Made by a program: the position numbers and the translations under genes. A DNA stretch of 64,000 bases from Escherichia phage EP75. Positions 3,246-45,167 of this stretch are shown here, piece by piece (position 1 is the stretch's first letter; every line of letters begins with the position of its first letter). Where the stretch lies: sequence record MG748547, one strand, 5' to 3'. The notes below the pieces were generated by a model. That model was not told the DNA's origin and searched no databases. It saw nothing but the letters and a program-made list of their open reading frames with translations.

Positions 3246-3254
3246 GACATATCC

Positions 3255-4434: not shown

Positions 4435-4452
4435 AAAAAGGAGGATAGAGCA

Positions 4453-4482: not shown

Positions 4483-4484
4483 GA

Positions 4485-4910: not shown

Positions 4911-5042
4911 TATTCGTACCCCAAACATTTGTTTAAGAAAGTCAGGACATCGTCCATGGTCTTGACCTCAATTTCAATGCCGAGTTGTTCCGCCAACTTG
5001 TTGGTGTTCTCGACGATCTCTTTGTCTCGCGCTGACATGATG

Positions 5043-5612: not shown

Positions 5613-5627
5613 CTTTACTTCCTCTTG

Positions 5628-7120: not shown

Positions 7121-7338
7121 CTCGTAATCCCTCCGGCACAGATAATATTCAGTTCACCGCGACGGAAACCGCCTTGCCCACCGTTCAATTTAGTCGGAAG
7201 CGTATCTTGAACTTTTTGTGCGAACCCTTCCGACACTACCAGATGACCCTTTTCTTGTTTCGGGGTAGATTCAAAATAATCGCCAAATGTCGCTTCCATA
7301 TCGAGCACAGACATGTCTTCAATTCGTTGCATTGCCAT
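7117..7338 (-). CDS. hypothetical protein
   Basis: 73-aa ORF translationally coupled. Confidence 0.4.
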   Translation of the reverse strand: MAMQRIEDMSVLDMEATFGDYFESTPKQEKGHLVVSEGFAQKVQDTLPTKLNGGQGGFRRGELNIICAGGITR

Positions 7339-7349
7339 GATATAGGACC

Positions 7350-7541
7350 TCAGTATAATTTCGTATAAACTTGTTTAACGCCAATATCGGCAGGAGCTGT
7401 GCTCTGCTGCATATTATAGAATGCCAAATCTGCTTGTTCTTTGTTTTCAAAATCAACTACAACTGTGTGTACTGATATTGCTTCACCCTGTCCATAAGCA
7501 TAACAACGGCTGGTGACCAATATTTTGTATTGAGGTGTCAT
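7350..7541 (-). CDS. hypothetical small protein
   Basis: 63-aa ORF preceded by AAGGA RBS and hairpin promoter element. Confidence 0.35.
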   Translation of the reverse strand: MTPQYKILVTSRCYAYGQGEAISVHTVVVDFENKEQADLAFYNMQQSTAPADIGVKQVYTKLY

Positions 7542-28542: not shown

Positions 28543-29733
28543 ATGGCCGATTTCCTGAGTCAATATACAGGTCAGCAGATAGATCAGATATTAGGTTCTG
28601 TTGATGACAAAGTAAGTAAAAACGACGTCATTGATGATTTTGAAGTCAGTGACCCATTGTTTCCGCCTTCTGCTCGCCTGACTTATGAGTTGAAAAGGTC
28701 TGTGGATACGATTAATGACACCCTGACCAACAAAGTTATAAGAACGGATAGTGGTGAACAGACAATCAACGGTAAGAAGACATTTAATGCGCTGTTGGTG
28801 ACCAATGGGGGCATACAAGTCCCCGCTGGGAAATCTGTTTCAATCGCGGACGAACCAACCAACTCAACAGACGGTGTCAACCTGAGTATGTTGAGGAAAC
28901 ATGGTGTCAGTGAAGACACTACCCCGCCTGGTTCTGGTTTGGCTGGGGAGTTGTTGACATCCGGATATTACAAATTCAATTTGGATTTCACCAGATTGTC
29001 TGCGTATACCGGACCAACGTTGCCGACTTCAGTTCCTGTGCAGACAGATTCTGGAGCGCGTTATTGGACAATGACTGCATTTTTTGATGCGTTGTTTGCA
29101 GACAACCGATTTAATGGATATGTGACAACGACAGCGTATGACGCAGATATGCTGAGTCTAGAGTCTCAGATTAATAACATCAACACGTCGTTGAACGGGA
29201 AAGTCAACACCTCGACTTACAACACTAAGATGGCGTCGTTGGATTTGAGTATCTCCAATATCAACACGTCTCTGGGTAATAAAGTCGAGGTCAGCACGTA
29301 CAACACGAAGATGACATCTCTGGATAACAGCATCAGTTCTCTTTCCAGTGATAAAGTTAGTGTATCAACGTATAATGCCAAGATGACCTCTATCGACAAC
29401 AGTTTGGGGAACGCCGTTTATCGTACCAAAACGAATTTGTCGTCATACACGGTTTCGGCTTCGGGAACGACGGCTCTTCCAGATTTTGATTTGGTGAACC
29501 TTTGTCAAATACTGGTAACTGCGCAATGGGGGACAGGTAACGTTGTTGACACATATCGAGTAACCATAACTCGTGACGGAACGATCAAATCAGAGTTGTT
29601 GGTTCAGAAAAGTACGAGCGGTACAGTGACGTTCACAGGGGCTGTGGTGGGTGGTAAATTGAGAATTTCCGTTGTTAATGCAAATACAACAACCGCTTGT
29701 TCTGTCGATTATTCTATTACAGCTTCTTTCTAA
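28543..29733 (+). CDS. tail fiber-like structural protein with tandem ~20-aa repeats
   Basis: repeats ...STYNTKM(A/T)SLD(N)SIS... x3-4; coupled to baseplate genes. Confidence 0.5.
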   Translation: MADFLSQYTGQQIDQILGSVDDKVSKNDVIDDFEVSDPLFPPSARLTYELKRSVDTINDTLTNKVIRTDSGEQTINGKKTFNALLVTNGGIQVPAGKSVSIADEPTNSTDGVNLSMLRKHGVSEDTTPPGSGLAGELLTSGYYKFNLDFTRLSAYTGPTLPTSVPVQTDSGARYWTMTAFFDALFADNRFNGYVTTTAYDADMLSLESQINNINTSLNGKVNTSTYNTKMASLDLSISNINTSLGNKVEVSTYNTKMTSLDNSISSLSSDKVSVSTYNAKMTSIDNSLGNAVYRTKTNLSSYTVSASGTTALPDFDLVNLCQILVTAQWGTGNVVDTYRVTITRDGTIKSELLVQKSTSGTVTFTGAVVGGKLRISVVNANTTTACSVDYSITASF

Positions 29734-29735: not shown

Positions 29736-29742
29736 CTAAATA
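29736..29742 (+). promoter_or_regulatory. late-promoter-like motif CTAAATA followed by hairpin
   Basis: AACTAAATACCCCTAGATGACATGAATACATTTAGGGGTATT upstream of tail spike gene. Confidence 0.4.
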
Positions 29743-29779
29743 CCCCTAGATGACATGAATACATTTAGGGGTATTACAA

Positions 29780-32700
29780 ATGGCCAACAAACCAACACAG
29801 CCTCTTTTCCCTTTGGGTTTAGAAACTTCTGAGTCTTCGAACATAAAAGGCTTCAACAACTCCGGCACTATTGAGCATTCCCCTGGTGCCGTAATGACAT
29901 TCCCTGAAGATACTGAAGTTGCAGGTCTTCCATCTTCTGTGCGTTACAATCCCGATAGCGATGAATTTGAAGGTTATTACGAAAACGGTGGTTGGTTGTC
30001 TTTGGGGGGCGGCGGAATACGCTGGGAAACGCTCCCTCACGCTCCCTCTAGCAATTTGTTAGAAGGTCGCGGCTATCTCATTAATAACACCACAGGGGCA
30101 TCTACAGTGGTTCTCCCTTCCCCTACGCGTGTTGGGGATTCCGTTACTATTTGTGATGCCTATGGGAAATTCGCGACGTATCCATTGACCGTATCTCCAG
30201 CGGGAAATAACCTGTATGGTTCCACTGAAGACATGGCTATAACAACTGATAACGTATCAGCAACGTTCACTTGGTCTGGACCTGAACAAGGTTGGGTTAT
30301 CACATCCGGCGTCGGCCTTGGCCAAGGCCGTGTCTACAGTCGTGAAATCTTTACACAAATTTTGGCGTCTGAAACAAGTGCTGTCACTCTCAATACTCCA
30401 CCAACAATCGTGGACGTGTACGCTGACGGAAAACGTCTTGCGGAATCCAAATATTCACTAGATGGGAATGTGATCACTTTCAGTCCTTCTTTGCCAGCCA
30501 GCACAGAACTTCAGGTGATTGAATATACTCCTATTCAATTGGGTAATGGCGGTGGTTCTGGTTCTTCTACGATTACCTGGGTCTATAATGGGGGTTCAGC
30601 GGTTGGCGGTGAAACCGAAATCACGTTAGACATCGTTGTCGATGATGTTCCAGCCATTGATATAAACGGAAGTCGCCAGTATAAAAATCTGGGGTTCACA
30701 TTCGATTCATTAACCAGTAAAATCACTCTTGCGCAAGAACTGGATGCAGAGGATGAAGTTGTTGTAATTATCAATGGAACGCCAAACATCTATAATCAAA
30801 TTGATTATACTTTGCGGGAAGTGGCTCGTGTAACCAATGTTAAAGATACAGAGGTCATTTATTTTAGTGTTGGTGCTGTGTTAAGTGGGTATAAAGTTAT
30901 CTATGATAAAGTAACACAGAGATCATATTTTATTCCAGAGCTACCGACTGGAACCACGGCAGTCAGCCTTAGTTCTTCGGCTGTACTTGTGCATTCAGCT
31001 GGTAGTGTTGATCTGGGCGCATTAGCTGTATCTCGCGAAGAGTATGTTACCTTGTCTGGGACATTTGATTCTGGTGCTGTCATCAATACTAAAAATGAAT
31101 TACTCACCCATACGAACGGTAAGTATCGCTGGGATGGTTCACTTCCTAAAACTGTCGATGCTGGATCAACACCTGAAACATCTGGTGGAGTTGGTATTGG
31201 TGAATGGGTAAGTGTTGGTGATGCTTCTTTAAGATCTGATTTGAATTCGACAAATGGAGCTGGAATTGTAAAAACTGGAAATGGGAATACTGTACAAGAA
31301 ACATTTGATTTTATAAAAAATGTTCAACAAACAAATCTACATCCTTTTGTTCCTTCAGGCAATTTCGGTTCTGGACTTCCTTTTGATTCTTCGTTACAGG
31401 TATTCAAGTATAATGATGAATATTACTCATACAAAGGACCTATTGTCCCAGGTTCGACAGTTCCGGCAACCCCATCCGTTGACTCAAACTGGAAAAAAGA
31501 ACCTATTTCTGATTACATAGAAAATTACGGTGGTGGTGTGCATGTAGCTGATCAGACACCTGCAATTATGGCGGCTATATCTGCTGGTGTTCGCCGTATC
31601 ATATTTCCTAAAGGTGAACTTAGAATGTCTCAGTGTGATATCCCAGAGTACACACAAGGCCTCACGTTTGAAGGGCAAGGTGCCAATCAGGCGTACACTG
31701 GAACAACAGTGATCAAACCGTTAAATGATAATCAAAATTGTTTATTTAATTCTGGCGTAAACCAGCACGGACAGGATTCTATAAAATTTAAAAACATTCA
31801 ATTTGACGGAGAATGGCGTTGCAATCATGCAATATTGCATGAGTCTGGAGCTGGTTGGTACTATGAAAAACTGACAGGTAAAAATTTCAATACATGGGTT
31901 ATCTACGATGATCAGGGTTTGACTGTAATGCGTGACGTTTATACCGAAGCAACCAGTTCAGATCTGACGAAAAGAGCTACAGGTGGGTGTATCCGTATAT
32001 ACTCAGATTCTGTAATGGACACCGTAAACTGTTATGGTGGAAGTGTTCCGCTATTGCTCGCTGCTGGTGGAAACCGAATTACGAATATCTGGGCAAATGG
32101 TGGGTATGATGTTGGCGCAATAATGTTGATGCCAAAAAATGACAGTACTAACCATATCAATACCGCTATGAGCAATATCTATATCGGAGAAAGCACAAAT
32201 ACATCTGCAACTGCAATTCCAGTTCTTCACATACAAGGTAACTCAATTCGTCGCGTATCTGGTGTTCAGATTTCAAATGCACATTTTGTGCATGCTGACT
32301 TGACTCTCAATACAAACATGGTGATGATACGAACCGATAAAGTTGATGGTTTTGTGATGTCATCTTTTGATGTTCTTGGACGAGGCGAGTACAGTTCTGC
32401 AAGCAGTCGCACATATAATTTCTTAAATGCGACAGATTCTACCGGAATGGCTTTTTCTGCCGGAAGTGTAAGAGGTATTAATAATAACCCAATAGTTTTA
32501 TCATCAGGGTCTAGGTTAGCTATTGATGCCGTTGAATTCGATGGGTGGAGTACGAACTCTGATTCAGGTATAGAGAATAAAGCTGCTATACGTTCATCTG
32601 GTGCTGGAACAAGGTGCTGCATTGGTAGCTCATGTACTTTCAATGCTTCGCAAGCGGATGCTTACGCTGTGTATGCAGGGGATGAATTTGCAGTTGATAT

Positions 32701-32821
32701 TTCTATTCTTAATCTTAACTATCCTAGTAGCAATATAATAATTCCTGCAAATACAAATTACAGTTACATGTATAAGCGACCAGGCGGAAAATTAACCTTA
32801 GTCAACACATTGACAATTTGA
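29780..32821 (+). CDS. tail spike protein (longest N-terminal extension; shared spike module at aa ~340-480)
   Basis: contains module EVIYFSVGAVLSGYKVIYDKVTQRSY...SVDLGALAVSREEYVTL...GKYRWDGSLPKTVDAGS shared with three downstream genes. Confidence 0.7.
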   Translation: MANKPTQPLFPLGLETSESSNIKGFNNSGTIEHSPGAVMTFPEDTEVAGLPSSVRYNPDSDEFEGYYENGGWLSLGGGGIRWETLPHAPSSNLLEGRGYLINNTTGASTVVLPSPTRVGDSVTICDAYGKFATYPLTVSPAGNNLYGSTEDMAITTDNVSATFTWSGPEQGWVITSGVGLGQGRVYSREIFTQILASETSAVTLNTPPTIVDVYADGKRLAESKYSLDGNVITFSPSLPASTELQVIEYTPIQLGNGGGSGSSTITWVYNGGSAVGGETEITLDIVVDDVPAIDINGSRQYKNLGFTFDSLTSKITLAQELDAEDEVVVIINGTPNIYNQIDYTLREVARVTNVKDTEVIYFSVGAVLSGYKVIYDKVTQRSYFIPELPTGTTAVSLSSSAVLVHSAGSVDLGALAVSREEYVTLSGTFDSGAVINTKNELLTHTNGKYRWDGSLPKTVDAGSTPETSGGVGIGEWVSVGDASLRSDLNSTNGAGIVKTGNGNTVQETFDFIKNVQQTNLHPFVPSGNFGSGLPFDSSLQVFKYNDEYYSYKGPIVPGSTVPATPSVDSNWKKEPISDYIENYGGGVHVADQTPAIMAAISAGVRRIIFPKGELRMSQCDIPEYTQGLTFEGQGANQAYTGTTVIKPLNDNQNCLFNSGVNQHGQDSIKFKNIQFDGEWRCNHAILHESGAGWYYEKLTGKNFNTWVIYDDQGLTVMRDVYTEATSSDLTKRATGGCIRIYSDSVMDTVNCYGGSVPLLLAAGGNRITNIWANGGYDVGAIMLMPKNDSTNHINTAMSNIYIGESTNTSATAIPVLHIQGNSIRRVSGVQISNAHFVHADLTLNTNMVMIRTDKVDGFVMSSFDVLGRGEYSSASSRTYNFLNATDSTGMAFSAGSVRGINNNPIVLSSGSRLAIDAVEFDGWSTNSDSGIENKAAIRSSGAGTRCCIGSSCTFNASQADAYAVYAGDEFAVDISILNLNYPSSNIIIPANTNYSYMYKRPGGKLTLVNTLTI

Positions 32822-32860
32822 TAACAAGAACCCATGATTCATAAATTTTATTAGTTCAGA

Positions 32861-32867
32861 CTAAATA
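32861..32867 (+). promoter_or_regulatory. late-promoter-like motif CTAAATA + conserved hairpin
   Basis: AGTTCAGACTAAATACCCCATATTGG...TATGGGGTAT; near-identical ~60-bp block at 35072..35134. Confidence 0.4.
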
Positions 32868-32900
32868 CCCCATATTGGTCATCCTTTATGGGGTATTATC

Positions 32901-35027
32901 ATGATTTCTCAATTCAATCAACCACGCGGCTCCACTTCTATAGAAGTTAACAAACAATCTATCGCTCGAAATTTCGGTGTCAAAGAAGACGAAGTCATTT
33001 ATTTCACTGCTGGTATTGATCTCAGTGGATTTAAAGTAATTTATGATGAGTCTACCCAACGGGCTTATTCTCTTCCTTCAGGTATTGTTTCAGGAACGAC
33101 TGCGATAAGTCTGAACGAACAAGCCATCCTTACTCATTCTTCTGGCTCTGTTGACCTTGGGGAATTAGCAGTAAGTCGCGAAGAATATGTGACTTTACCT
33201 GGTTCTTTTAATTTCGGCCATACCATTAATGTGAAAAATGAACTTCTTGTTCACGATGATAAAAAATATCGATGGGATGGTTCACTTCCTAAAACTGTCG
33301 ATGCTGGCTCAACACCTGAAACATCTGGTGGCGTTGGTTTAGGTGCATGGTTGAGTGTTGGTGACGCAGCATTTAGACAGGAAGCCAACAAAAAATTCAA
33401 ATATTCAGTAAAGTTATCTGATTATTCTACATTACAGGATGCAGCGACAGCAGCCGTAGATGGATTGCTTATTGATATCAATTACAACTTCACAGATGGT
33501 GAGTCTGTAGATTTTGGTGGTAAGACTTTAACCATTAACTGTAAGGCTAAGTTTATTGGAGATGGGGCTTTAATCTTTAATAATATGGGGCCAGGCTCGG
33601 TAATTAATCAACCATTCATGGAGAGCAAGACTACTCCATGGGTCATTTTCCCGTGGGATGCTGATGGTAAATGGATTACAGATGCTGCCCTTGTTGCTGC
33701 AACGCTGAAGCAATCAAAGATTGAAGGCTATCAACCTGGGGTAAATGACTGGGTTAAATTCCCTGGATTAGAGGCATTACTCCCACAGAACGTTAAAGAC
33801 CAACATATTACAGCCACTCTAGATATTCGCAGTGCCAGCCGAGTAGAAATAAGAAATGCTGGTGGTCTTATGGCTGCTTACCTTTTCCGTAGTTGTCATC
33901 ACTGCAAGGTAATTGATTCAGATAGCATCATTGGTGGTAAAGATGGAATCATTACCTTTGAGAACCTTAGTGGTGATTGGGGATTAGGTAATTATGTTAT
34001 TGGTGGACGTGTTCATTATGGTTCTGGTAGTGGTGTTCAGTTCCTGAGAAATAATGGTGGTGAATCCCACAATGGTGGAGTTATTGGTGTTACATCATGG
34101 CGAGCTGGTGAGTCTGGTTTCAAGACTTATCAGGGTTCCGTTGGTGGTGGTACTGCACGTAACTATAATCTACAGTTCAGGGATTCTGTTGCATTGTCTC
34201 CTGTTTGGGATGGTTTTGACTTGGGTTCTGACCCAGGTATGGCACCAGAACCGGATAGACCTGGGGATTTACCTGTATCTGAATATCCATTCCACCAACT
34301 GCCTAATAACCATTTGGTTGATAATATTCTTGTTATGAACTCACTTGGTGTTGGTTTAGGTATGGATGGTCGTGGTGGGTATGTTTCTAACGTTACCGTA
34401 CAGGATTGTGCTGGTGCAGGTATGCTTGCACATACTTACAACCGTGTATTTTCTAACATTACAGTTATTGATTGTAACTACCTTAATTTTGATTCTGACC
34501 AAATTATCATTATAGGTGATTGTATTGTTAATGGGATTAAGGCTGCTGGGATTAAACCACAACCATCAAATGGCCTGGTTATCAGTGCACCAAACTCCAC
34601 AATAAGTGGGTTGGTCGGTAATGTTCCTCCAGATAAAATTCTTGTTGGTAACTTACTTGACCCAGTATTAGGTCAGTCTAGAGTCATCGGGTTCAATAGT
34701 GATACTGCTGAGTTGGCTCTACGTATTAACAAGCTGTCAGCTACTCTGGATAGTGGTGCTTTACGTTCCCATCTGAACGGTTCTGCTGGTTCTGGTTCAG
34801 CATGGACTGAGTTAACTGCACTCTCTGGTTCAACCCCTAATGCTGTATCTCTCAAGGTTAACCGAGGAGATTATAAGACAACTGAGCTACCTATTTCTGG
34901 TACAGTATTACCGGATGAAGGTGTGTTGGATATTAATACAATGTCCTTGTACTTAGATGCGGGTGCACTGTGGGCTTTGATACGACTCCCTGATGGAAGT
35001 AAAACACGTATGAAGTTATCTGTGTAA
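32901..35027 (+). CDS. tail spike protein
   Basis: shared spike module at N-terminus; divergent C-terminal region. Confidence 0.7.
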   Translation: MISQFNQPRGSTSIEVNKQSIARNFGVKEDEVIYFTAGIDLSGFKVIYDESTQRAYSLPSGIVSGTTAISLNEQAILTHSSGSVDLGELAVSREEYVTLPGSFNFGHTINVKNELLVHDDKKYRWDGSLPKTVDAGSTPETSGGVGLGAWLSVGDAAFRQEANKKFKYSVKLSDYSTLQDAATAAVDGLLIDINYNFTDGESVDFGGKTLTINCKAKFIGDGALIFNNMGPGSVINQPFMESKTTPWVIFPWDADGKWITDAALVAATLKQSKIEGYQPGVNDWVKFPGLEALLPQNVKDQHITATLDIRSASRVEIRNAGGLMAAYLFRSCHHCKVIDSDSIIGGKDGIITFENLSGDWGLGNYVIGGRVHYGSGSGVQFLRNNGGESHNGGVIGVTSWRAGESGFKTYQGSVGGGTARNYNLQFRDSVALSPVWDGFDLGSDPGMAPEPDRPGDLPVSEYPFHQLPNNHLVDNILVMNSLGVGLGMDGRGGYVSNVTVQDCAGAGMLAHTYNRVFSNITVIDCNYLNFDSDQIIIIGDCIVNGIKAAGIKPQPSNGLVISAPNSTISGLVGNVPPDKILVGNLLDPVLGQSRVIGFNSDTAELALRINKLSATLDSGALRSHLNGSAGSGSAWTELTALSGSTPNAVSLKVNRGDYKTTELPISGTVLPDEGVLDINTMSLYLDAGALWALIRLPDGSKTRMKLSV

Positions 35028-35040
35028 TAAGTAACTTATG

Positions 35041-35066
35041 CCCCGCTTTGGCGGGGTTCTTATTAT
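35041..35066 (+). terminator. rho-independent terminator CCCCGC-TTTG-GCGGGG + T-rich
   Basis: read directly. Confidence 0.55.
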
Positions 35067-35096
35067 ACCTTTGTTCATAAATTTTATTAGTTCAGA

Positions 35097-35103
35097 CTAA
35101 ATA
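35097..35103 (+). promoter_or_regulatory. late-promoter-like motif CTAAATA + conserved hairpin
   Basis: duplicate of 32846..32898 block. Confidence 0.4.
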
Positions 35104-35124
35104 CCCCATATTGGCAAATCCTTT

Positions 35125-37905
35125 ATGGGGTATTTTCAAATGACTAGAAATGTAGAAGAATTATTCGGCGGCGTAATCACAGCTCCCCACCAGATTCCTT
35201 TCACGTATAAATCAAATGTCGGTGGAGAAACTTTCCTTTCCTTGCCGTTCTATCCTGTCACTGGCGTAGTCACAATCAACGGTGGTATGCAAGTTCCGTT
35301 AGACAACTTTGAAATCGAAGGAAATACGTTGAATCTCGGGCGCGCATTGTCCAAAGGCGATGTTGTGTATTGCTTATTCGATAAAATTCTTTCGCCAGAA
35401 GATACAGCCAAAGGTATCCGCATATACAAATTTCAAGCCGTAGGAGGTGAAACCGAGTTCACTCCTGATTTCACATCTTATGGAGTCCAATCTCTTTATA
35501 TCGGTGGCGAGTACAAAACACCCGAAATTGAATATTCCTATAACAGCATGACAGGGAAAGTATCTTTGCAAACTGCACTGACTGCAGGCGTTTGGGTAGT
35601 CGCTGAAATGTCTGTTAGACAACCGAATATCAGTCCGGCATTTGATCGAAGTATTCAAGAAATCGCCCGTTCTGCTAATGTAAAAGACTCTGAAGTCATC
35701 GTTAGTACGGACACCATATCTTTGTTGGATGGGAAGAAAGTTGTTTATGATATAGCGACGCAAACCAGTTATGGTTTACCAACCATACCTGATGGTTCTG
35801 TCATTTCTTCTGTATCTGCTGGGAAATTGAATTACAACCCAGGTGATGTGCAGGTTGATTTGTTGCCTTTAGAAGATTCATTTATTAATGTGATAAACAC
35901 TCTGGGGCGCAATGATGGTGCCAAGTATATTGGAGAATGCCATTCTGTTGCTGATCTCAGGAATACTGAACCCACTATGGATGGACAACGCATTATTCTT
36001 AAGCAACACACTGCGGGTACTCTTCTTGGTGGAGGGGTATTCCGTGCGTTAATTGATGGTACAGGAAAGACTGATAATAACGGTACTGTGATCAAAACTG
36101 TTGGCGGCGCAGCATGGTTACGTGTTAATGCTGATAGAGTTAACCCATTCATGTTTGGTGCTTTGGGTGGTTCTAATGATGATACTATTCCAGTACAATC
36201 TTGTGTGGATAGTGGTAAGGCCACACAATTAACTGATGCACATTACGTTAGCAATATCCAGTTAAAATATAATACGTCGTCTATTTATGGGTCTGGATTA
36301 CATTACTCAAGGTTGCATCAGTTGCCTTCTGCTACTGGGAATTGTATTACCATAAAAGATACATGCTCCCTTATTGTATTAGACGCCTTTGGGGTATATG
36401 GCACAGGTGCACAACAAGGCACGTCATTTACTGCGGGCACAACAGGTATCTATGTAGAAACTCCTTCAGGTCTCTCAGCCGATTATCCGTTCCACACTAC
36501 CGCAGACCCAAGACGCGACTTGTGTATTTCTAAAGTCCATATAGCAGGTTTTGATGAATATGGGTTAAATATTGATAGTGGTAACTTTAGTGTTACTACA
36601 GATTCTCTTTTAGTCAACCACATCAATCAGGTGGGTGTCCGTTGTGCTACTACTGATTGGACTTGGACAAATATCCAGGTTAATACCTGCGGTAAACAAT
36701 GTCTGGTTCTTGATGGTTGTGGTAATGGTCGTATTATTGGCGGTAAATTCATTTGGGCTAACTGGCAACCTTATGGTACAGTAGGACAGTTCCCAGGCAT
36801 TACTATTAATAACAGCCAGAATATGGTTATTAATGGTATTGAGGTACAAGATTGTGGTGGGAATGGCATTGAGATTAGCGATTCATATTCAATTTCCATG
36901 AACGGATTGAACACCAATCGTAACGGCATCAATGCTAACAACACTTTCTACAACATCGTATTTAACAAAAGTGATGCAGTTATCAACGGATTCGTAGGAC
37001 TCAATTATGCCGCGAATAGTGGTTCAGGTGCTAACTCTAGTGCAGGCAATTTTCAGTTCCTGTCTAATGATTGTAGTGTCACCATTAATGGTGTGGTTGA
37101 GACTGGTTATATGGGCATTAACTTTATTGGTGATAACAATATTATCAACCCCACCAATTCCGACCTGAGCATTAACGGATTGGTTAATTATTCCAAGACT
37201 GGTTTGCAAACCATGAACGAGACCCCTACATTTGATGGTGTTAGCACTACACCTGTTTATGTAAGTGTCCCATCTTCTGTAGGGCAAGTAAATGGTCTGA
37301 GACTATCACAAGCCAACAAAGATAAATTACTGTACTCAAGAACAGCAGGTCCAGAAGGTATTACCATGGCTGCTGTTATAGTACCTACTATATCTGGAGC
37401 TGAAGTATTTAACTTCATGGCCATTGGTTCAGGGTTTAGTGATACATCCAACAGTCTTCATCTTCAATTAGTTATAGACGCTTCTGGAAAACAAACAATT
37501 GCTTTGCTATTGGGGGGCGATGGTACAACCCAAATTTTATCTGGGGATTTACCTAACGACCTTAAACTACAAAGTGGTGTGCCATATCATATAGCTATTG
37601 GTGCTAAACCTGGATATTTCTGGTGGAGTATTCTTAATATTCAGACGGGTAAGAGAATCAGACGGTCATTCCGAGGCGCTTATTTAGCCGTACCATTTAA
37701 TTCTATATTCGGATTAACTTCCTCATTAACATTCTTCTCGGATAGCAATGCTGGTGGGGATGCTTGTTCTGGGGTGGGCGCTAAAGTGTATGTTGGTATG
37801 TTCTCTTCTGAGAACGATTATGTAGCTTCACGATACTACAACCTGATTAATCCTGTAGACCCTACTAAGTTAATTAGTTACCGTATATTGGATTCTTCTA
37901 TTTAA
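35125..37905 (+). CDS. tail spike protein with distinct N-terminal baseplate-attachment-like domain
   Basis: weaker copy of the shared module (SEVIVSTDTISLLDGKKVVYDIATQTSYGLP); glycine/serine-rich beta-rich remainder. Confidence 0.6.
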   Translation: MGYFQMTRNVEELFGGVITAPHQIPFTYKSNVGGETFLSLPFYPVTGVVTINGGMQVPLDNFEIEGNTLNLGRALSKGDVVYCLFDKILSPEDTAKGIRIYKFQAVGGETEFTPDFTSYGVQSLYIGGEYKTPEIEYSYNSMTGKVSLQTALTAGVWVVAEMSVRQPNISPAFDRSIQEIARSANVKDSEVIVSTDTISLLDGKKVVYDIATQTSYGLPTIPDGSVISSVSAGKLNYNPGDVQVDLLPLEDSFINVINTLGRNDGAKYIGECHSVADLRNTEPTMDGQRIILKQHTAGTLLGGGVFRALIDGTGKTDNNGTVIKTVGGAAWLRVNADRVNPFMFGALGGSNDDTIPVQSCVDSGKATQLTDAHYVSNIQLKYNTSSIYGSGLHYSRLHQLPSATGNCITIKDTCSLIVLDAFGVYGTGAQQGTSFTAGTTGIYVETPSGLSADYPFHTTADPRRDLCISKVHIAGFDEYGLNIDSGNFSVTTDSLLVNHINQVGVRCATTDWTWTNIQVNTCGKQCLVLDGCGNGRIIGGKFIWANWQPYGTVGQFPGITINNSQNMVINGIEVQDCGGNGIEISDSYSISMNGLNTNRNGINANNTFYNIVFNKSDAVINGFVGLNYAANSGSGANSSAGNFQFLSNDCSVTINGVVETGYMGINFIGDNNIINPTNSDLSINGLVNYSKTGLQTMNETPTFDGVSTTPVYVSVPSSVGQVNGLRLSQANKDKLLYSRTAGPEGITMAAVIVPTISGAEVFNFMAIGSGFSDTSNSLHLQLVIDASGKQTIALLLGGDGTTQILSGDLPNDLKLQSGVPYHIAIGAKPGYFWWSILNIQTGKRIRRSFRGAYLAVPFNSIFGLTSSLTFFSDSNAGGDACSGVGAKVYVGMFSSENDYVASRYYNLINPVDPTKLISYRILDSSI

Positions 37906-37957
37906 AAAATATACCCCTCTTCGGAGGGGTCTTTACTAGAAAAACAATGAGGTACTT

Positions 37958-40222
37958 ATGAACGAAATGTTTAGTCAAGGTGGTAAAGGTTCAACTGGAA
38001 TCTTAACCAATAAACAAGCAGTAGCCAGACACTTTGGAGTTAAACAATCTGAGGTTGTTTATTTCTCAGTTGGTGTAGATTTAGGTGGGTATAAAGTTAT
38101 CTATGACAAGGAAACGCAAAGAGCTTATTCCTTACCTGTTGGTATTGCTTCTGGTACTACTGCCGTCAGTCTTAGTACTGCTGCTGTACTTGTACATTCA
38201 GCAGGTTCTGTAGACTTAGGTGCATTAGCTGTATCTCGTGAAGAATATGTTACCTTGGCTGGGACATTTGATTCTGGCTCTACGCTTAACGTTAAAAATG
38301 AATTACTTACTTATACAGATGGTAAGTATCGCTGGGATGGGGCATTACCTAAAACTGTCGATGCTGGTTCTGCCCCAGCTTCAAGCGGTGGAGAAGGTCC
38401 TGGTGGATGGATTAGTGTTGGTGATGCTTCTCTTCGATCTTATTTAGCAACGAACTCAGGTTCTGGCGCTGTTGGCTATAGCTTCAAAGGTCTTGTGAAT
38501 GCATCCCATAGAAAAGTAAACGAGAAATTGGATGAGTATGCTAGCCTTTGGGATTTCCACTGTGACTCAAGTGGTAACGTCATCCAACCTGGGTTATCCA
38601 CAGATAGCAGGCAGTATATTCAGAACGCGGTTGACGCTATTTCTGATGCTGGCGGTGGCACATTAGTTATTCCCGTTGGTTATACATGGTATCTAAACAG
38701 CACAGACCCTGCATCTGGGCACAGCGGTATTATTCAGCTCAAGAGTAATGTCAATATCCAGATTGAAGGAACCATAAAGATAGGTCCTGCATTAGCTTCT
38801 TCATCATTTCAGATATTCGTAGGGTTCGATAATGGAAGCCCGGCTGCATCAGGCAACCTGAATAACTGTCATATCTACACTAATGGCAATGGTACAATAG
38901 ACTTTGGTGGATACGATTTTGATAACACTTCTCAATTAAGGAACGGTATTGCCTTTGGTAAGAGCTATAACTGTTCCGTGTCTCGTATTATCTTCCAAAA
39001 TGGTGATATTACATGGGCCGTAACTACAGGCTGGAATGGGTACGGTAGTGATTGTGTGGTGCGGAAGTGCCGTTTCATTAACCTCATCCAGAGCAATAAC
39101 AACGCAGACCACAGTACTGTTTACATCAACTGCCCCTACAGTGGTGTTGAGGGTTGTACATTCCGTGCCTCATCTACTCGTGCACAGATGATTGCTTGCA
39201 CTGTAGAACTACACCAGCATGATACTTGGTACAGGGATTCTTTCATCGAAGGGTATGTACGTGGGTGCTACATTGCCCTGCATGGTGTAGAGGCGGCTGG
39301 GGCTGGTACTTATATCTACAATGCTGTTGTATCAGGCGTTACTGGTGACATCTCAGGTCAGGCTATTATATTAGCAGCAGGACCTGACTCCGTGACAACT
39401 ACACACATCAATGGTGTTTCTGTGGAGAATTGCAGAATTACTGCTGGCAACCAAGCTGGAATGTGTAGCTTTATTGACTTCTTCCAGGATAGTAACTCTG
39501 ACTCAAGCCAGTACCTTATTAACCACGTTACGGTTAAGGGGTGTAGTTTTATTGTAGACCGTAATCGTGCACTCAGTGCAGCAATAACAATTAACGGCAG
39601 CATACAGGGTATTACGTTCCAAGATAACTTCTTTGACGTTAAACAAGCCATGGTGTCTGAATTGCCTTCAGGAAAAACAGTGCAGTTAGTACGGTTTAAC
39701 TGGGATGAAAGTAATATCATTGGTGATGATAACACTGGTACGCGTAATGCCCTCAATCTGTTCGAGACTCGGCGTGTCTCCAGTATGACCAAATGCAATA
39801 TATCTTTGCGTATGCGTCAGCCAAGCCCAGAGTTATTTAGCCTTATGTATTTTAGACCAAATGAAACCACTTTCAGTGACTGTACATTTGAGGTACTGCC
39901 ATACAACTGGTCGTGCACATCAGGAAACCCTATAGTTTTTGAAACTACAGATACCCCACCATCTGGAATGCGTGTTCGTTTTCCTAAGTCAATTTCATTT
40001 ACGTTGCCTGCTGGTTCGAACGCCCAACGTGCTACAGGGGGTTCTGGTTATTCTTGGGTGGCTAGAGCAGATGCTCTTGATAGGCGTAGCATTTCTGGGC
40101 AATTTGACGCTCCGGCATCTTACTCCGGATCTAGTGATGGTAAATTGATTGGAATAGGGTGGCAGTTAGACGGAGTACAGCATACCTACGACCATAATGT
40201 GTATTTGCAAAACTTTACATAA
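37958..40222 (+). CDS. tail spike protein
   Basis: shared spike module at N-terminus (VVYFSVGVDLGGYKVIYDKETQRAYSLP...GKYRWDGALPKTVDAGS). Confidence 0.7.
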   Translation: MNEMFSQGGKGSTGILTNKQAVARHFGVKQSEVVYFSVGVDLGGYKVIYDKETQRAYSLPVGIASGTTAVSLSTAAVLVHSAGSVDLGALAVSREEYVTLAGTFDSGSTLNVKNELLTYTDGKYRWDGALPKTVDAGSAPASSGGEGPGGWISVGDASLRSYLATNSGSGAVGYSFKGLVNASHRKVNEKLDEYASLWDFHCDSSGNVIQPGLSTDSRQYIQNAVDAISDAGGGTLVIPVGYTWYLNSTDPASGHSGIIQLKSNVNIQIEGTIKIGPALASSSFQIFVGFDNGSPAASGNLNNCHIYTNGNGTIDFGGYDFDNTSQLRNGIAFGKSYNCSVSRIIFQNGDITWAVTTGWNGYGSDCVVRKCRFINLIQSNNNADHSTVYINCPYSGVEGCTFRASSTRAQMIACTVELHQHDTWYRDSFIEGYVRGCYIALHGVEAAGAGTYIYNAVVSGVTGDISGQAIILAAGPDSVTTTHINGVSVENCRITAGNQAGMCSFIDFFQDSNSDSSQYLINHVTVKGCSFIVDRNRALSAAITINGSIQGITFQDNFFDVKQAMVSELPSGKTVQLVRFNWDESNIIGDDNTGTRNALNLFETRRVSSMTKCNISLRMRQPSPELFSLMYFRPNETTFSDCTFEVLPYNWSCTSGNPIVFETTDTPPSGMRVRFPKSISFTLPAGSNAQRATGGSGYSWVARADALDRRSISGQFDAPASYSGSSDGKLIGIGWQLDGVQHTYDHNVYLQNFT

Positions 40223-40235: not shown

Positions 40236-40265
40236 AAAAACCCCGCTTCGGCGGGGTTTTTATTT
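40236..40265 (+). terminator. rho-independent terminator CCCCGC-TTCG-GCGGGG-TTTTTATTT
   Basis: read directly; identical core at 53781..53805. Confidence 0.65.
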
Positions 40266-40328: not shown

Positions 40329-43300
40329 ATGCAATCTACAAATTTAAACCGTCGCCCGTATTGGGATGACTGGAATCCTGGGAAACGTTTTTCACGGATT
40401 CTTTTTCGTCCGATGCCTATCAAGGTTCAGACTCGCGAACTGAACCAGATGCAGACTATTCTTCAGGATCAAATTGAAAAACTGGGCAACCATTTGTTCA
40501 AAGATGGTTCTATGGTTATCCCTGGTGGTCTGACGATTACCAATGCCGCAGTCTCTTTGAAATTCACTTTGGCTGGTGGTACTGAATTCACTGATCTGGA
40601 AGGTATTTCTGAACTCTACGTTTTGGGGAAGGACAATAATGCCAAAGCGCGTGTGTTGTCTCTTGAACGTGATCTGTCTGCTCCTGATACGATGCTGGCT
40701 ATCCTTGAGATGACTGAAGCGGGTAATGCTGACGGATTCCATGTTAACGATAATCTGTATTTCCAGACTTACGACGTGAATGATAATTTCATTCGTATTG
40801 GTTATGGTATCGCAGCTGCAGTGACTGGTTCTATCGTCGCTCGTATGACAAAAGGCGTTTACTTCATTCGTGGGATGTTCCTAGACGTTGATGACGCAAC
40901 TCTTATCGTTGATAAAACTTCTAACATCACTTCCCACCGCATCGGATTTAAAGTCACCGAAACTATTGTCACCGAAACAGAAGATGAATCCCTTTATTCA
41001 AATGCTCAGGGAACGATTAACTCTAAAGCCCCAGGCGCTCATCGTCTTCGAATAGATCTGGTCTTATCTCGATTTGATTATGATGCTGTGGTTGAAGACT
41101 TTGTTGAACTGGCCAAAGTTCGTGAAGGTAAAATCCAGTCTATGGTGACTCAGTCCACCTATAATATTCTGGAAGACACGTTAGCCCAACGGACTTATGA
41201 AACCAATGGCGATTACAACGTTTCAACCCACCAGATCGATATTCGTGAACACCTGAAAGTCAATAACAATGGCGGGGTATTCAATGCCGCTGATGGCGGT
41301 GACGAGAGCAAATTTGTTTCTGTGATGAAACCAGGCATATCCTATGTTCGCGGTCGACGTATCGAAAACGTCGGGGAAGAGTTGGTGATCGTTGATAAGG
41401 CGCGGGATACCGATGTCCTGAACAACACCCCTGTTGCGGTGGCCACAGGCAATTATCTGGTCACTAAGAATTCTAAAGGTGTGCCAGTGATATCCCGCAC
41501 CGTTCGATACAAATTACTGAATGCTTCAGGCGTTACCCAGGCTACAGCACTTTGTATATCAGCTGAACGTAATTCAACAGAATTTCGTCTGTATATGCGC
41601 GACCTGGTCGTTACTGGCGATGCATCCACTATCACCAAAGTGTCTTACGAAGAAAGCGGTATCACCATGTTCTCTGCTGAACTGGAATCCAATCAGTTTA
41701 ACCAGAGTTCTATGATAGATCTGATCTTCTCTCTTCCGGTATTCGGTGTCAAGACTTTAGCACCAACTGGCTCCGTGGATATCAACTACACTGTTCTCAG
41801 AACGTATAAAGTGACGTTGGACAACAGCGGCGCGGGTTCTATTTCTGCTCCATTGGGATATAGTTTTTCCCCAGAATTTTCGTTATACTCTGCAGCGAAA
41901 TCAGATGGTTCGGAAGCGCAGTTCGATATCTCTGGTTCTTTGTCTTTGACTGGTTCTCCGGTCGGTTCGGCGCTGCAGATTTCTCTGGGCAGTGGTAATG
42001 CTAACCAGTCAATCAATTTGCTGGCGCTGATGATTCGTACCACGGCCACAATCAAAACGAAGACCATCACTGAAACAACTGAAACAGTGACGTTCACCTC
42101 GCAGACTAGCCGCCCTTTGGCGAATCACGATGGTTGGAAATTGGTGTCGGTCAAAAACGATACTGGCGCAGACGTGACCTCCAGCTTCGTCCTAGATGGC
42201 GGACAGCGTGATGCAGGGTATTACAAGTCTAACTTGTTATCCAGCGCTGGAGCAATCTCAGGGACGTATACAGTGGTGTATCAATACTTCGCCCACAGTT
42301 CCGGTGATTTCTTCTCTGCTGATTCGTATACTTCGATGGATTATAAAGATATCCCGAATTATACATCTTCTACATCAGGCGCGGTGTACGGCCTGGCAGA
42401 TAGTTTGGATTTCCGTCCGAAAATCACCAACGGAACTTCTGACACAGATATGGTTCGTCCAAACACTGCAGTTATTCTGGACACAGAATATTATCTGCCG
42501 CGTATTGACGCGATTTATCTGGCAGACAACGGCGTGTTCGGAGTGGCTCGTGGCATCAGTTCGAACAATCTGGCTTCTCCAGCAATCCCAGCGAACGCCA
42601 TGCGTTTGTATGAATTGTTGATCCCGCCGTATACACCGAATATTGATGATATTCAAATTCGAACTATTGATAATCGTCGTTATACGATGCGCGATATCGG
42701 TAAACTGGAAACCCGTATTTCCAATGTTGAATACTATACCTCTCTGTCACAGCTGGAATCTTCAGCGATGACACAGCAAGTGTTCGACCCCATCACGGGT
42801 AATCCCCGTTTCAAAAATGGTATTGCGGCTGATCCGTTCAAAGACTTCCGGTTGATTGATGACTTGTCTGAAGATTGGATGGGTTCTATCGATACCGAAA
42901 ACGGACGTCTGCGCCCGTTTGTACAACAAAACGTTGTTGACATGACTCCTGTTGGCTGGAACAAAGTGATGGATGGGATGGTGGTTTGCAATTACACGCC
43001 TGAAATCTCAGTGAACCAAGAATATGCGACGACGACGATCAACGTTAACCCGTATGCAGTATTCAATTGGGAAGGTTTCTTGAAGATTAACCCGACCACA
43101 GACTACTGGTTCGAAAACTATTATGTTGCGCCGCGTATTATCAATGAAACGATCAACACCCGTGGTACTGTACAAGAAGGTTCAGTGTACGGAACATGGC
43201 GTACTGTTTCTGTTTCTGATCGTGTTTGGGAACCGCATGGCGCTGGTGGTGTGTGGTGGGGATATCGTTACCGCACGACTGTTTCTGCCCGTGATGTCAC

Positions 43301-45167
43301 CACATATACATACACGGACAAAACAACCACGACCATGACTGGTGAACAGATTGTGGAGACGCAAGTTATCCCATACATGCGCGAGATCGATATTTCTTTC
43401 GACGCATCTGGGCTGCGACCTTTCACTCGTATGTATGCGTTTTTCTCTGGTCGTGACGTTAATCTGTATTGCAAACCGAATGGTGGTAATTTCGGAGACC
43501 CAATCACCACTGATGCCAATGGTGCTGTTAAAGGTGTATTCCGCGTTCCACAGAACGATACAATCAAGTTCAACACAGGCGACAACGTGTTCCGCTTAAC
43601 GGATAGCCCTGTTGACAGTAAATCTGCGGATGATACACTGACCAATGCAGAAATTGTTCATAAATCTTTCGGTAAGAAACAAGGTATTCAAAAGACCTTT
43701 GTCAACACTCGTGTCCTGGGTTACACTGCTAGTACTCGCACCGAAACTTCTACTTCTGAAGTGGTTGTTGATCAATGGCGTGATCCGATTGCCCAATCGT
43801 TTATGGTGGCGACTAAGAATGGCGGCGAGTATATCGAAGGCGTGGAAGTATTCTTCTCTACCAAGTCACGTGATGTTCCGATCACTCTGGAAATTCGCGA
43901 GATGGAGAATGGCTTACCTTCTCATACAGTCATTACTCGTAAAACTTTGAACCCGTCTGAAGTAACGATCTCTACAGACTCTTCCGGCGGTACGAAGTTC
44001 ACCTTTGATTATCCGGTGTATCTGCAAGCATCGACTGAGTTTGCTATCGTTTTGTTGGCGAATACTCAGGATTACAACGCGTATATCGCGGAAATGGGCA
44101 AGAAAAACCTTCTGTCCAACGAATATATCGCCAAACAACCGTATACGGGGGTGTTCTTCACTTCTTCAAACGGTTCAACTTGGTCTCCGAACCAAATGGC
44201 CGATATGAAATTCCGCATATATCGTTGCAACTTTGCGGCTGGTCAGAACGTTGTAACATTTGATCCGAAGCTCGGGCCAAAACAACGTCCGTTGGGATTG
44301 AACACTCTGAACTGCGTAAGCGGGTCTTCTGTTGTGACTGTGTTTGCACCTGGTCATGGTTTGGTTGCTGGGAACAATGTCACGCTTTCTGAATTGACAG
44401 GCGGTTGTGGCTTTACTCCTGAACAACTTAACAAAACGTTTACTGTGACAGATGCGAGCTATACTTCATTCAAGATTGACGTCGGTACGGCAGCAGACAG
44501 CAATGGACAAATCGGTGGAGATAATGCTTCTTTCTTGGGCAATTATCTGGTTGATATGTTCTATGCCAGCGTTACCAATTCGGCTCTGGAAGGTTCAATT
44601 CTGAAATTGGAATACCGTTATCGCGATGCCACTTCAAATTCTATGTCTGATTGGGCTGAGTTTGAAACTGACACTGACGTGGCATTGCCGACTGAAGGTA
44701 TCTATCGTCAGGTCGGGGATTTCCAAATCCGAGCCACCATGACGCGTAGTGAAAACAACGTGTACACTGCTCCAATGATTGATGGTGATGACCTAAGTGT
44801 GATCTTCAACTCTTATGGCGTAGATCCTTTTGAAGACGTTTTCAAATATGTCACAAAGGACATTGGTTTCGATAACCCATGTTCGACTGTGAAACTGTTC
44901 TTCGGGGCGATGCTGCCTTCTCAATCCTCCATGAAGGTGCAGGTGAAACTTCTAAGAGCAGGGCAAGAGATGGATAGTGTGGCTTGGGAAGACGTCACCC
45001 CAACTTCGCCTCTGGTTAACGACGGTTCCACATTCTTTGAATATGAGTATGACAAGACTGTGGCGAGCAATAACCCGTTTGTTGGCCTGAAAGTCCGAGC
45101 GCTTGTACGGGGGAACCGCGTTGCTCCTCCATCATTCAAAGACTTCCGTCTTATTGCTCTGGCATAA
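40329..45167 (+). CDS. large virion structural protein (1612 aa; baseplate/tail-fibre class, possibly gp7-like)
   Basis: size and position between tail spikes and neck genes; no catalytic motifs recognised. Confidence 0.5.
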   Translation: MQSTNLNRRPYWDDWNPGKRFSRILFRPMPIKVQTRELNQMQTILQDQIEKLGNHLFKDGSMVIPGGLTITNAAVSLKFTLAGGTEFTDLEGISELYVLGKDNNAKARVLSLERDLSAPDTMLAILEMTEAGNADGFHVNDNLYFQTYDVNDNFIRIGYGIAAAVTGSIVARMTKGVYFIRGMFLDVDDATLIVDKTSNITSHRIGFKVTETIVTETEDESLYSNAQGTINSKAPGAHRLRIDLVLSRFDYDAVVEDFVELAKVREGKIQSMVTQSTYNILEDTLAQRTYETNGDYNVSTHQIDIREHLKVNNNGGVFNAADGGDESKFVSVMKPGISYVRGRRIENVGEELVIVDKARDTDVLNNTPVAVATGNYLVTKNSKGVPVISRTVRYKLLNASGVTQATALCISAERNSTEFRLYMRDLVVTGDASTITKVSYEESGITMFSAELESNQFNQSSMIDLIFSLPVFGVKTLAPTGSVDINYTVLRTYKVTLDNSGAGSISAPLGYSFSPEFSLYSAAKSDGSEAQFDISGSLSLTGSPVGSALQISLGSGNANQSINLLALMIRTTATIKTKTITETTETVTFTSQTSRPLANHDGWKLVSVKNDTGADVTSSFVLDGGQRDAGYYKSNLLSSAGAISGTYTVVYQYFAHSSGDFFSADSYTSMDYKDIPNYTSSTSGAVYGLADSLDFRPKITNGTSDTDMVRPNTAVILDTEYYLPRIDAIYLADNGVFGVARGISSNNLASPAIPANAMRLYELLIPPYTPNIDDIQIRTIDNRRYTMRDIGKLETRISNVEYYTSLSQLESSAMTQQVFDPITGNPRFKNGIAADPFKDFRLIDDLSEDWMGSIDTENGRLRPFVQQNVVDMTPVGWNKVMDGMVVCNYTPEISVNQEYATTTINVNPYAVFNWEGFLKINPTTDYWFENYYVAPRIINETINTRGTVQEGSVYGTWRTVSVSDRVWEPHGAGGVWWGYRYRTTVSARDVTTYTYTDKTTTTMTGEQIVETQVIPYMREIDISFDASGLRPFTRMYAFFSGRDVNLYCKPNGGNFGDPITTDANGAVKGVFRVPQNDTIKFNTGDNVFRLTDSPVDSKSADDTLTNAEIVHKSFGKKQGIQKTFVNTRVLGYTASTRTETSTSEVVVDQWRDPIAQSFMVATKNGGEYIEGVEVFFSTKSRDVPITLEIREMENGLPSHTVITRKTLNPSEVTISTDSSGGTKFTFDYPVYLQASTEFAIVLLANTQDYNAYIAEMGKKNLLSNEYIAKQPYTGVFFTSSNGSTWSPNQMADMKFRIYRCNFAAGQNVVTFDPKLGPKQRPLGLNTLNCVSGSSVVTVFAPGHGLVAGNNVTLSELTGGCGFTPEQLNKTFTVTDASYTSFKIDVGTAADSNGQIGGDNASFLGNYLVDMFYASVTNSALEGSILKLEYRYRDATSNSMSDWAEFETDTDVALPTEGIYRQVGDFQIRATMTRSENNVYTAPMIDGDDLSVIFNSYGVDPFEDVFKYVTKDIGFDNPCSTVKLFFGAMLPSQSSMKVQVKLLRAGQEMDSVAWEDVTPTSPLVNDGSTFFEYEYDKTVASNNPFVGLKVRALVRGNRVAPPSFKDFRLIALA

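Follow-up and report, generated by a model that had tools for sequence, protein, structure and literature searches.

The four-tailspike cluster of Escherichia phage EP75, its known branched arrangement, and a possible Citrobacter link of the TSP4 receptor-binding domain

Four consecutive genes of Escherichia phage EP75 code for proteins that share a conserved module, which raises the question of whether their products form a single branched apparatus for adsorption, with as many as four receptor specificities, as an earlier sequence-only reading of this DNA had proposed. The window analysed here is a stretch of 64,000 nucleotides from sequence record MG748547, and the ORF listing contains the four plus-strand open reading frames on which that proposal was based, at 29780-32821, 32901-35027, 35125-37905 and 37958-40222. 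These almost certainly constitute the cluster tsp4-tsp3-tsp2-tsp1 (5' to 3') of a Kuttervirus (Ackermannviridae), with TD1-TD2 heads joining the spikes in one branched unit. Both the four-tailspike cluster and its branched reading are correct and already known in the literature, and a link of the TSP4 receptor domain to Citrobacter freundii is the one new lead amid this known picture. The features of the region are as follows:

29736..29775, plus strand: CTAAATACCCC motif (late-promoter-like) with a 14-bp hairpin, the 3' arm of which includes the ribosome-binding site AGGGG, 4 nt ahead of the tsp4 ATG
29780..32821, plus strand: tsp4, 1013 aa, predicted to be baseplate-anchored and to carry the rest of the complex; syntenic with S117 'tail spike 4'
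29780..30793, plus strand: anchor and gp10-like XD1-XD2-XD3 domains of TSP4 (aa 1-338), matching 7REJ, 7RFO and 7RFV
30809..31249, plus strand: internal module copy of TSP4 (TD1 aa 344-421, TD2 to about aa 490)
31277..32818, plus strand: receptor-binding domain of TSP4 (aa 500-1013), a predicted right-handed β-helix
32838..32897, plus strand: CTAAATACCCC promoter-like motif and hairpin upstream of tsp3 (repeat families D4 and D7)
32901..35027, plus strand: tsp3, 708 aa; TD1-TD2 head (aa 1 to about 160) and Det7/P22-type endorhamnosidase β-helix (aa 161-706)
35040..35057, plus strand: intrinsic-terminator-like hairpin after tsp3
35074..35137, plus strand: CTAAATACCCC promoter-like motif and hairpin upstream of tsp2; the 3' arm contains the ATG at 35125
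35140..37905, plus strand: tsp2, 921 aa from the ATG at 35140 (the longest ORF, from 35125, has 926 aa); XD2-XD3, TD1 and an O157-specific β-helix
about 35608-35910, plus strand: TD1 of TSP2
37958..40222, plus strand: tsp1, 754 aa; TD1-TD2 head (aa 1-157; 37958-38428) and HK620-like endoglycosidase β-helix (aa 158-754)
40236..40261, plus strand: strong intrinsic-terminator-like hairpin after tsp1, at the end of the cluster before vriC
40329-45167: gene for a DUF4815 protein (vriC), downstream of the cluster

The cluster is flanked by a gp6-like wedge gene, two small conserved genes and the DUF4815/VriC gene. Its gene order is syntenic with the annotations of S117, SJ3, SenALZ1 and CBA120, all four of which proved to be Kutterviruses on individual inspection of their records, and the run of four consecutive tsp genes between the wedge block and vriC is that of the Kuttervirus TSP1-4 branched receptor-binding complex. 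A search of a phage collection matched the region to 353 records, mostly of Salmonella and Escherichia phages; no single record in this collection contained all four spikes, the best (SJ3/ST-W77) covering 83% of the region, and the TSP1 receptor domain was found in only 8 records, at 94.9% identity. Compared with CBA120, identity is 95.19% for TSP4 aa 1-499, 92.7% for the N-terminal 165 aa of TSP3, 99.46% for TSP2 (against orf211) and 86.19% over 181 aa of the TSP1 N-terminus. These values agree with those published for EP75 TSP4, TSP3, TSP2 and TSP1 (95.2%, 93%, 99.5%, and 86.2% at 24% coverage, respectively; PMC8217332), as do the identities to HK620 and to ST-W77/moki/SJ3. The published EP75 spikes, in which TSP1-4 are gp167, gp168, gp169.1 and gp169 (Witte et al. 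2021, PMC8217332), are of the same four types in the same order; in this comparison, made via published values rather than by direct alignment, no difference was detected.

The element upstream of tsp4 has an identical counterpart preceding CBA120 orf213, and over 41 nt the copies upstream of tsp3 and tsp2 match perfectly (100%); a sigma-70 promoter scan gave no information, with 25 sites versus 30 expected. For tsp2 the start is most likely the ATG at 35140: the alignment with CBA120 TSP2 begins at residue 6 of the ORF, and the annotated length in relatives is 2766 nt; the start at 35125 was rejected on the basis of this alignment.

The shared module is real, with similarity far above chance in pairwise blastp comparisons (62-71% identity, E 5e-56 to 7e-66), and the motifs originally used to describe it are present in the alignment. 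TSP4 aa 335-489 align with TSP3 aa 8-163 (62%, E 5e-56), TSP4 aa 346-497 with TSP1 aa 20-172 (71%, E 5e-62), and TSP3 aa 1-159 with TSP1 aa 1-160 (67%, E 7e-66). The module had been described as N-terminal in three spikes, but blastp places it there only in TSP3 and TSP1; its internal location in TSP4 is borne out, from aa 344 to about 490, after the anchor domain and XD1-3. In the literature the module is known as the TD1-TD2 (D1-D2) head of the trimeric spikes. Its second half is the Pfam domain PF18668 (Tail_spike_N, the TSP1/Gp66 N-terminal domain; gathering threshold 25 bits), scoring above threshold in TSP4 (aa 416-481, E 2.8e-22, 79 bits), TSP3 (aa 90-155, 94.6 bits) and TSP1 (72.5 bits), with no match in TSP2 in the Pfam profile search. 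The GTTAVSL motif lies at aa 391 of TSP4, aa 65 of TSP3 (as GTTAISL) and aa 66 of TSP1; the published positions are equal for TSP4 and TSP3, and 65 for TSP1.

For the 35125..37905 protein, TSP2, a degenerate copy behind a different N-terminal domain had been claimed. Such a copy is indeed present (34-35% identity, E 1e-8 and 2e-6), but it stops short of the second half: it spans ORF aa ~166-268, the first half only, and the alignment ends after TD1, so that TSP2 has XD2-XD3 and TD1 without TD2. The N-terminal region is not wholly different either: ORF aa 105-249 align with TSP4 aa 274-417 (36%, E 1e-18), and the stretch before the module is therefore homologous too. Similarity to relatives breaks off at the end of the module, at aa 482 in TSP4 (versus S117) and at aa 157-158 in TSP1 (versus S117 and SJ3). 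The conserved module end very probably doubles as a homologous-recombination junction for the exchange of receptor domains, and the head itself very probably works in assembly, as a plug, instead of binding receptors.

The C-terminal domains of all four spikes are β-helices, as judged for TSP1-3 from sequence similarity to solved structures and for TSP4 from an AlphaFold2 model. In PDB sequence searches TSP1 aa 159-741 matched the HK620 tailspike 2VJI (E 4e-157), and its C-terminus has 44.7% identity to HK620 (published 45%) and 78.8% to the tailspikes of the E. coli O18:K1:H7 phages K1ind1-3. The HK620-like part is reported to begin at Ser158 and to contain the catalytic residues D384/E417, equivalent to D339/E372, the Asp/Glu pair of the HK620-type endo-N-acetylglucosaminidase (PMC8217332), and all three residues lie at the positions given there. 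TSP1 is thus probably an HK620-like endoglycosidase with E. coli O18A as its expected target, the specificity assayed for EP75 TSP1 (PMC8217332). TSP3 aa 151-708 matched the Det7 tailspike 2V5I (E=0) and the P22 tailspike (E 1e-223; 1TSP family), and PF09251 spans aa 161-706 (E 9.5e-303, 1005 bits, covering positions 2-551 of the 552-position profile). A Det7/P22-type endorhamnosidase is hence predicted, with Salmonella O4/O9 (and O7) as expected target, and EP75 TSP3 was assayed to act on Salmonella O4/O9/O7 (PMC8217332). TSP2 matched 6W4Q (E=0, ORF aa 6-926 on chain aa 1-921), and its assayed target is E. coli O157 (PMC8217332).

The TSP4 receptor domain had no sequence match in the PDB. Its AlphaFold2 model (pLDDT 88.8, pTM 0.83) is nearly all β, and the top Foldseek matches are β-helix enzymes and tailspikes, including alginate epimerases, at probability 1.0 and TM-scores of 0.3-0.47, modest values that in this model point to the fold class and to no specific enzyme family or chemistry. 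Domains of this type are common to EP75, SJ3, ST-W77, moki, SPTD1 and SenALZ1, and homologues at 90-94% identity occur in other phage types. In two scans of one-genome-per-species bacterial contigs it was represented only by a Chryseobacterium fragment (30% identical).

Given that all four C-termini are β-helices and that the Kuttervirus complex has been published, the branched four-spike reading, with up to four receptor specificities, is therefore supported, and it matches published work on Kutterviruses (PMC8825819, PMC8432352, PMC11721090) and on EP75 (PMC8217332). C-terminal domains devoid of β-helix or enzymatic folds, which would have told against the earlier reading, were not what was found. 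Gene order, domain homologies, β-helix folds, catalytic residues and mosaic breakpoints were seen here, and the physical assembly order and enzymatic specificities are drawn from the literature. TSP4 aa 1-338 match the CBA120 TSP4-N crystal structures 7REJ/7RFO (E 4e-219), and in the published CBA120 complex XD2 of TSP4 is the docking site of TSP2 and XD3 that of TSP1 (PMC8825819). By analogy, the N-terminal anchor domain of TSP4 would bind the baseplate, its XD2 would bind XD2 of TSP2, its XD3 would take the TSP1 head, and the TSP3 head would dock on the TSP2:TSP4 complex, resulting in one branched unit with four different C-terminal β-helix depolymerases. This order was determined for CBA120, not EP75, by ultracentrifugation, in which TSP1 binds TSP4 XD3 and TSP3 binds only the pre-formed TSP2:TSP4 complex (PMC8825819). 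With EP75, adsorption is blocked when the cells have first been treated with TSP1, TSP2 or TSP3 (PMC8217332), and specificities are experimentally known for these three of the four spikes (PMC8217332, PMC9965104).

One could instead suppose that the four spikes attach separately to the baseplate via their own module copies, with no branching, as the module occurs in all four proteins and a common baseplate-binding head, comparable to the head-binding domain of P22, is conceivable. This we regard as very improbable: the anchor domain is confined to TSP4, T4 gp10-like XD adaptor domains are present in TSP2 and TSP4, and the N-termini are 86-99% identical to those of CBA120, in which the above ultracentrifugation results were obtained. 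The chance that repetition of the module is an artefact of assembly or duplication is vanishingly small, with nothing in its favour beyond the repetition itself; the copies have diverged (62-71% in protein and about 70-79% in DNA among TSP4, TSP3 and TSP1), and the same arrangement in the independently sequenced S117, SJ3, SenALZ1 and CBA120, along with the 353 matching records, refutes it.

An alternative that accepts the branched complex holds that only three spikes work and that the TSP4 C-terminus is a decayed or structural remnant, kept because the TSP4 N-terminus is needed for anchoring. On the test strains of EP75 and SPTD1 this TSP4 type had no halo, adsorption or plating effect (PMC8217332, PMC9965104), and the SPTD1 authors explicitly raised its non-functionality (PMC9965104); as TSP4 was inactive on all strains tested in two studies, four functional specificities are not proven. 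A remnant is nevertheless unlikely, since the domain is intact with a confident β-helix model, is under purifying selection (dN/dS 0.08-0.12 at dS ~0.4), and retains the acidic residues D591, D743 and E804 (query D92, D244 and E305) that are invariant in 25 homologues down to 26% identity. Furthermore, tailspikes of two phage backbones unrelated to this one, a lambda-like prophage of C. freundii and a siphovirus-like contig, match it from aa 530 on at 92-94% identity. This conservation pattern, as read from sequence, would fit a working enzyme whose host is missing from the test panels. In the C. freundii prophage, a gtrA/gtrB/gtrC-type cassette for O-antigen modification adjoins the tailspike gene. 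The domain is also ~70% identical to the tailspike of a P22-like prophage of E. coli NCTC8623, which has a GtrC homologue (73% identical); this strain is listed as O125:H2 in one methods section only (PMC5704137), and it was the only match in a search of complete E. coli genomes for the P22-like homologue, which is too few for a serogroup association. It is possible, if somewhat short of probable, that the TSP4 receptor domain is an active depolymerase for a C. freundii O-antigen, perhaps with cross-reactivity toward an O125-like antigen of E. coli. If true, this would add a third host genus for EP75-type Kutterviruses.

The branched architecture explains how several O-serotypes across genera are infected by one myovirus, and domain swaps after the TD2 junction have already been used for host-range engineering. 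The one thing that this window adds is a concrete, testable candidate host for the orphan TSP4 domain; this matters because EP75 and SPTD1 are in commercial use for biocontrol and diagnostics, and hosts outside the target range count there.

Among the known systems close to this one is the branched complex of CBA120 (orf210-213; Plattner et al. 2019; PMC8825819, PMC7506556, PMC6517402), with the same gene order and anchor/XD/TD architecture. TSP2 is nearly identical in the two phages (99.5%) and identity in the N-terminal assembly regions is 86-95%, whereas TSP1, TSP3 and TSP4 have receptor domains with no sequence relationship to their CBA120 counterparts, being HK620-like, Det7/P22-like and orphan in EP75. 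In CBA120 the targets are Salmonella O:21 and E. coli O77 and O78. HK620 gp9 and the K1ind1-3 tailspikes (E. coli O18) share a homologous β-helix and the conserved catalytic Asp and Glu with TSP1 but differ in the N-terminal head, and the published specificity of TSP1 is O18A as against O18A1 for HK620 (PMC8217332). Similarly, Det7 gp207 and P22 gp9 possess the same endorhamnosidase domain (PF09251 in full length) as TSP3, which has the Kuttervirus TD1-TD2 instead of the P22 head-binding domain. The gp10-like XD docking platforms are alike in G7C gp66/gp63.1 and T4 gp10, with a PF18668-type head on the docked spike (PMC8825819, PMC10408124); however, G7C has two receptor-binding proteins versus four here, and T4 gp10 docks gp11 and gp12 rather than depolymerase spikes.

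Four consecutive open reading frames on the + strand, proposed as tail-spike genes by the sequence-only reading, were borne out exactly:

29780-32821, +, tsp4, ORF of 1013 aa
32901-35027, +, tsp3, ORF of 708 aa
35125-37905, +, tsp2, longest ORF, 926 aa
37958-40222, +, tsp1, ORF of 754 aa

The annotation of phage S117 gives the identical order (tail spike 4, 3, 2, 1). The cluster is bordered on its 5' side by a gp6-like baseplate wedge block and two small conserved genes, and on its 3' side by a 1612-aa DUF4815 protein, named VriC in the annotation of relatives. In megablast searches 353 phage records, nearly all from Salmonella or Escherichia phages, match the region, with the best single phage record spanning 83% of it; all four of the compared records (S117, SJ3, SenALZ1 and CBA120) are classed as Kuttervirus, family Ackermannviridae. 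The VriC-like protein (window 40329-45167) contains three DUF4815 stretches, and its gene, which follows the spike cluster, is preceded by its own CTAAATATCTC motif. Directly upstream of tsp4 lies a 396-aa homologue of CBA120 orf215 (window 28543-29733), whose several tandem VSTYNTKMTSLDNSIS-like repeats of ~14 residues and weak BppL_N match suggest a possible trimeric fibre or adaptor beside the spikes.

The module common to the spikes is real, with similarity far beyond chance (E 5e-56 to 7e-66): TSP4 aa 335-489 and TSP3 aa 8-163 share 62% identity (E 5e-56), TSP4 aa 346-497 and TSP1 aa 20-172 share 71% (E 5e-62), and TSP3 aa 1-159 and TSP1 aa 1-160 share 67% (E 7e-66). DNA identity among these three copies is 70-79%, and all the peptide motifs quoted in the sequence-only reading are present in the alignment. 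This module is the TD1-TD2 (also D1-D2) head, the second half of which is the curated Pfam domain PF18668 (Tail_spike_N; TSP4 aa 416-481, TSP3 aa 90-155, TSP1 aa 91-156). It had been described as N-terminal in three spikes, but is so in only two. The degenerate copy proposed for the 926-aa protein, TSP2, is present (34-35% identity, E 1e-8 and 2e-6), but comprises the first half of the module only, with the PF18668 half absent; the account of a different N-terminal domain in front of it is incomplete, since that region is partly homologous to TSP4 (TSP2 ORF aa 105-249 versus TSP4 aa 274-417, 36% identity, E 1e-18). The end of the module doubles as a recombination junction. TSP1 ceases to resemble S117 and SJ3 at aa 157-158, and TSP4 ceases to resemble S117 at aa 482; proposals based on the GTTAVSL motif and an anchor-end motif (PMC8432352; PMC10408124), as well as engineered chimeras (PMC9965104), agree with a junction at this point. 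In SJ3 (KJ174318.1, 12178-14714 of the compared stretch) the tsp1 annotation is split just past the TD1-TD2 junction, into a "tailspike protein" of 558 nt and a "hypothetical protein" of 1917 nt; a frameshift, an error in sequencing or disruption of TSP1 could account for this.

The first 338 residues of TSP4 match the anchor/XD1-3 region of CBA120 TSP4 as solved in crystal structures (7REJ, E 4e-219). Over aa 151-708, TSP3 is matched by the tailspikes of Det7 (2V5I, E=0) and P22 (E 1e-223), and PF09251 is matched at full length. TSP2 shares 99.46% identity with its CBA120 counterpart, the O157-specific spike (6W4Q, 5W6P). For TSP1, the HK620 tailspike aligns over aa 159-741 (E 4e-157); identity is 44.7% with HK620 and reaches 78.8% with the spikes of K1ind1-3, phages that infect E. 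coli O18:K1:H7. The C-terminal domains of TSP1-3 match solved β-helix tailspikes, and for the TSP4 C-terminus the fold was modeled with AlphaFold2 from a 25-sequence alignment (pLDDT 88.8, pTM 0.83), giving nearly all β-strands. Foldseek searches of the PDB with this model recovered right-handed β-helix proteins with probability 1.0, namely epimerase modules of AlgE4/AlgE6 along with tailspikes of CBA120, Sf6 and Pam1; with TM-scores of just 0.3-0.47, this gives the fold class of TSP4 but not its chemistry.

As the C-terminal domains are all β-helical, that of TSP4 by its model, the proposed branched adsorption apparatus with up to four receptor specificities is supported, in line with the published Kuttervirus assembly. 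The assembly model is that of CBA120, which shares 86-99% identity with the spikes of the window in their N-terminal regions, and is based on a crystal structure and analytical ultracentrifugation (PMC8825819). There, the TSP4 anchor domain attaches the spike to the baseplate, TSP4 XD2 binds TSP2 XD2, TSP4 XD3 binds the TSP1 head, and TSP3 joins only the pre-formed TSP2:TSP4 complex (PMC8825819; reviewed in PMC11721090). Halos form with purified EP75 TSP1 on E. coli O18A, with TSP2 on E. coli O157 and with TSP3 on Salmonella O4/O9/O7, and all three proteins block adsorption of the phage; a target of TSP4 was not detected in the published assays (PMC8217332). The original observation was largely right and its interpretation right, the branched four-spike arrangement being already known.

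The closest non-Kuttervirus relatives of the TSP4 receptor domain are PF18668-headed tailspikes of ~655 aa with 90-94% identity. One of these belongs to a lambda-like Citrobacter freundii prophage (CP057319.1); its identity to TSP4 is 84% across 594 aa and 92.5% from aa 530 onward. Directly 3' of it, a pair of GtrA/GtrB type and a protein of 603 aa read as a putative O-antigen modification cassette. A further relative occurs on a 47-kb siphovirus-like contig, and E. coli prophages carry ~70%-identical versions under a P22 head-binding domain, including one in NCTC8623, listed as O125:H2 (PMC5704137), where the 603-aa protein beside the spike is 73% identical to that of Citrobacter. Against its two closest relatives the domain shows dN/dS of 0.12 and 0.08 (dS ~0.4), and three acidic residues (D591, D743 and E804 in TSP4 numbering) are invariant in 25/25 homologues. 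The close relatives, low dN/dS and invariant acidic residues argue that the TSP4 domain is probably functional and its host missing from the published panels; we hypothesize that a C. freundii O-antigen is the best candidate target. The Citrobacter (10001-15120 of the compared stretch) and NCTC8623 (2602-7530) loci represent unrelated temperate phages, a lambda-like siphovirus and a P22-like podovirus, bearing homologous receptor domains, each spike being followed by a homologous gtr-type O-antigen modification cassette on the opposite strand. Since these homologous pairs occur in unrelated phages of C. freundii and E. coli, the spike domain and seroconversion cassette appear to move together across phage types.

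A CTAAATACCCC motif, resembling the T4 late promoter TATAAATA, lies directly 5' of tsp4, tsp3 and tsp2 (window 29736-29775, 32861-32897 and 35097-35137, +), with a further match at 18382 (-); the window contains 5 matches at <=1 mismatch against 0.71 expected. At these three genes the motif is the 5' arm of a hairpin with 11-14 bp of perfect pairing, and the 3' arm (GGGGTATT) overlaps the probable ribosome-binding site, 3-5 nt ahead of the ATG. In CBA120, orf213, orf212 and orf211 are preceded by these same three elements; tsp1 is without one. By analogy with T4 gene e, transcripts initiated within the hairpin would be open to translation, whereas in read-through transcripts the hairpin would sequester the ribosome-binding site. 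The start of tsp2 is most likely ATG 35140, yielding 921 aa, because the additional upstream ATG (35125) falls within the hairpin 3' arm. In CBA120, S117 and SJ3 the start lies 15 nt further downstream than that of the longest ORF (window 35125-35139), the CBA120 TSP2 alignment begins at residue 6 of the 926-aa ORF, and tsp2 is annotated at 2766 nt in relatives. The tsp4-tsp3 and tsp3-tsp2 intergenic regions share 41 nt at 100% identity (window 32838-32878 and 35074-35114), followed by 21 nt at 95% (repeat families D4 and D7). Conservation here far exceeds that of the coding modules on either side, suggesting either a regulatory element or gene conversion in the recent past.

Comparison with CBA120 gives, for the window and as published for EP75 (PMC8217332) respectively, 95.19% and 95.2% for TSP4 aa 1-499, 92.7% and 93% for TSP3 aa 1-165, 99.46% and 99.5% for TSP2, and 86.19% and 86.2% for TSP1 aa 1-181 (24% of the protein; published coverage 24%). 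Ser158, the published HK620-like boundary, and the catalytic D384 and E417 are found at exactly those TSP1 positions, and over the TSP4 C-terminus the DNA shares 97-98% identity with SJ3, moki, ST-W77 and SPTD1, relatives named in the published work. From these agreements, the window is taken to be EP75 or a Kuttervirus nearly identical to it. The cluster is a textbook, experimentally dissected system in an apparently already characterized phage.
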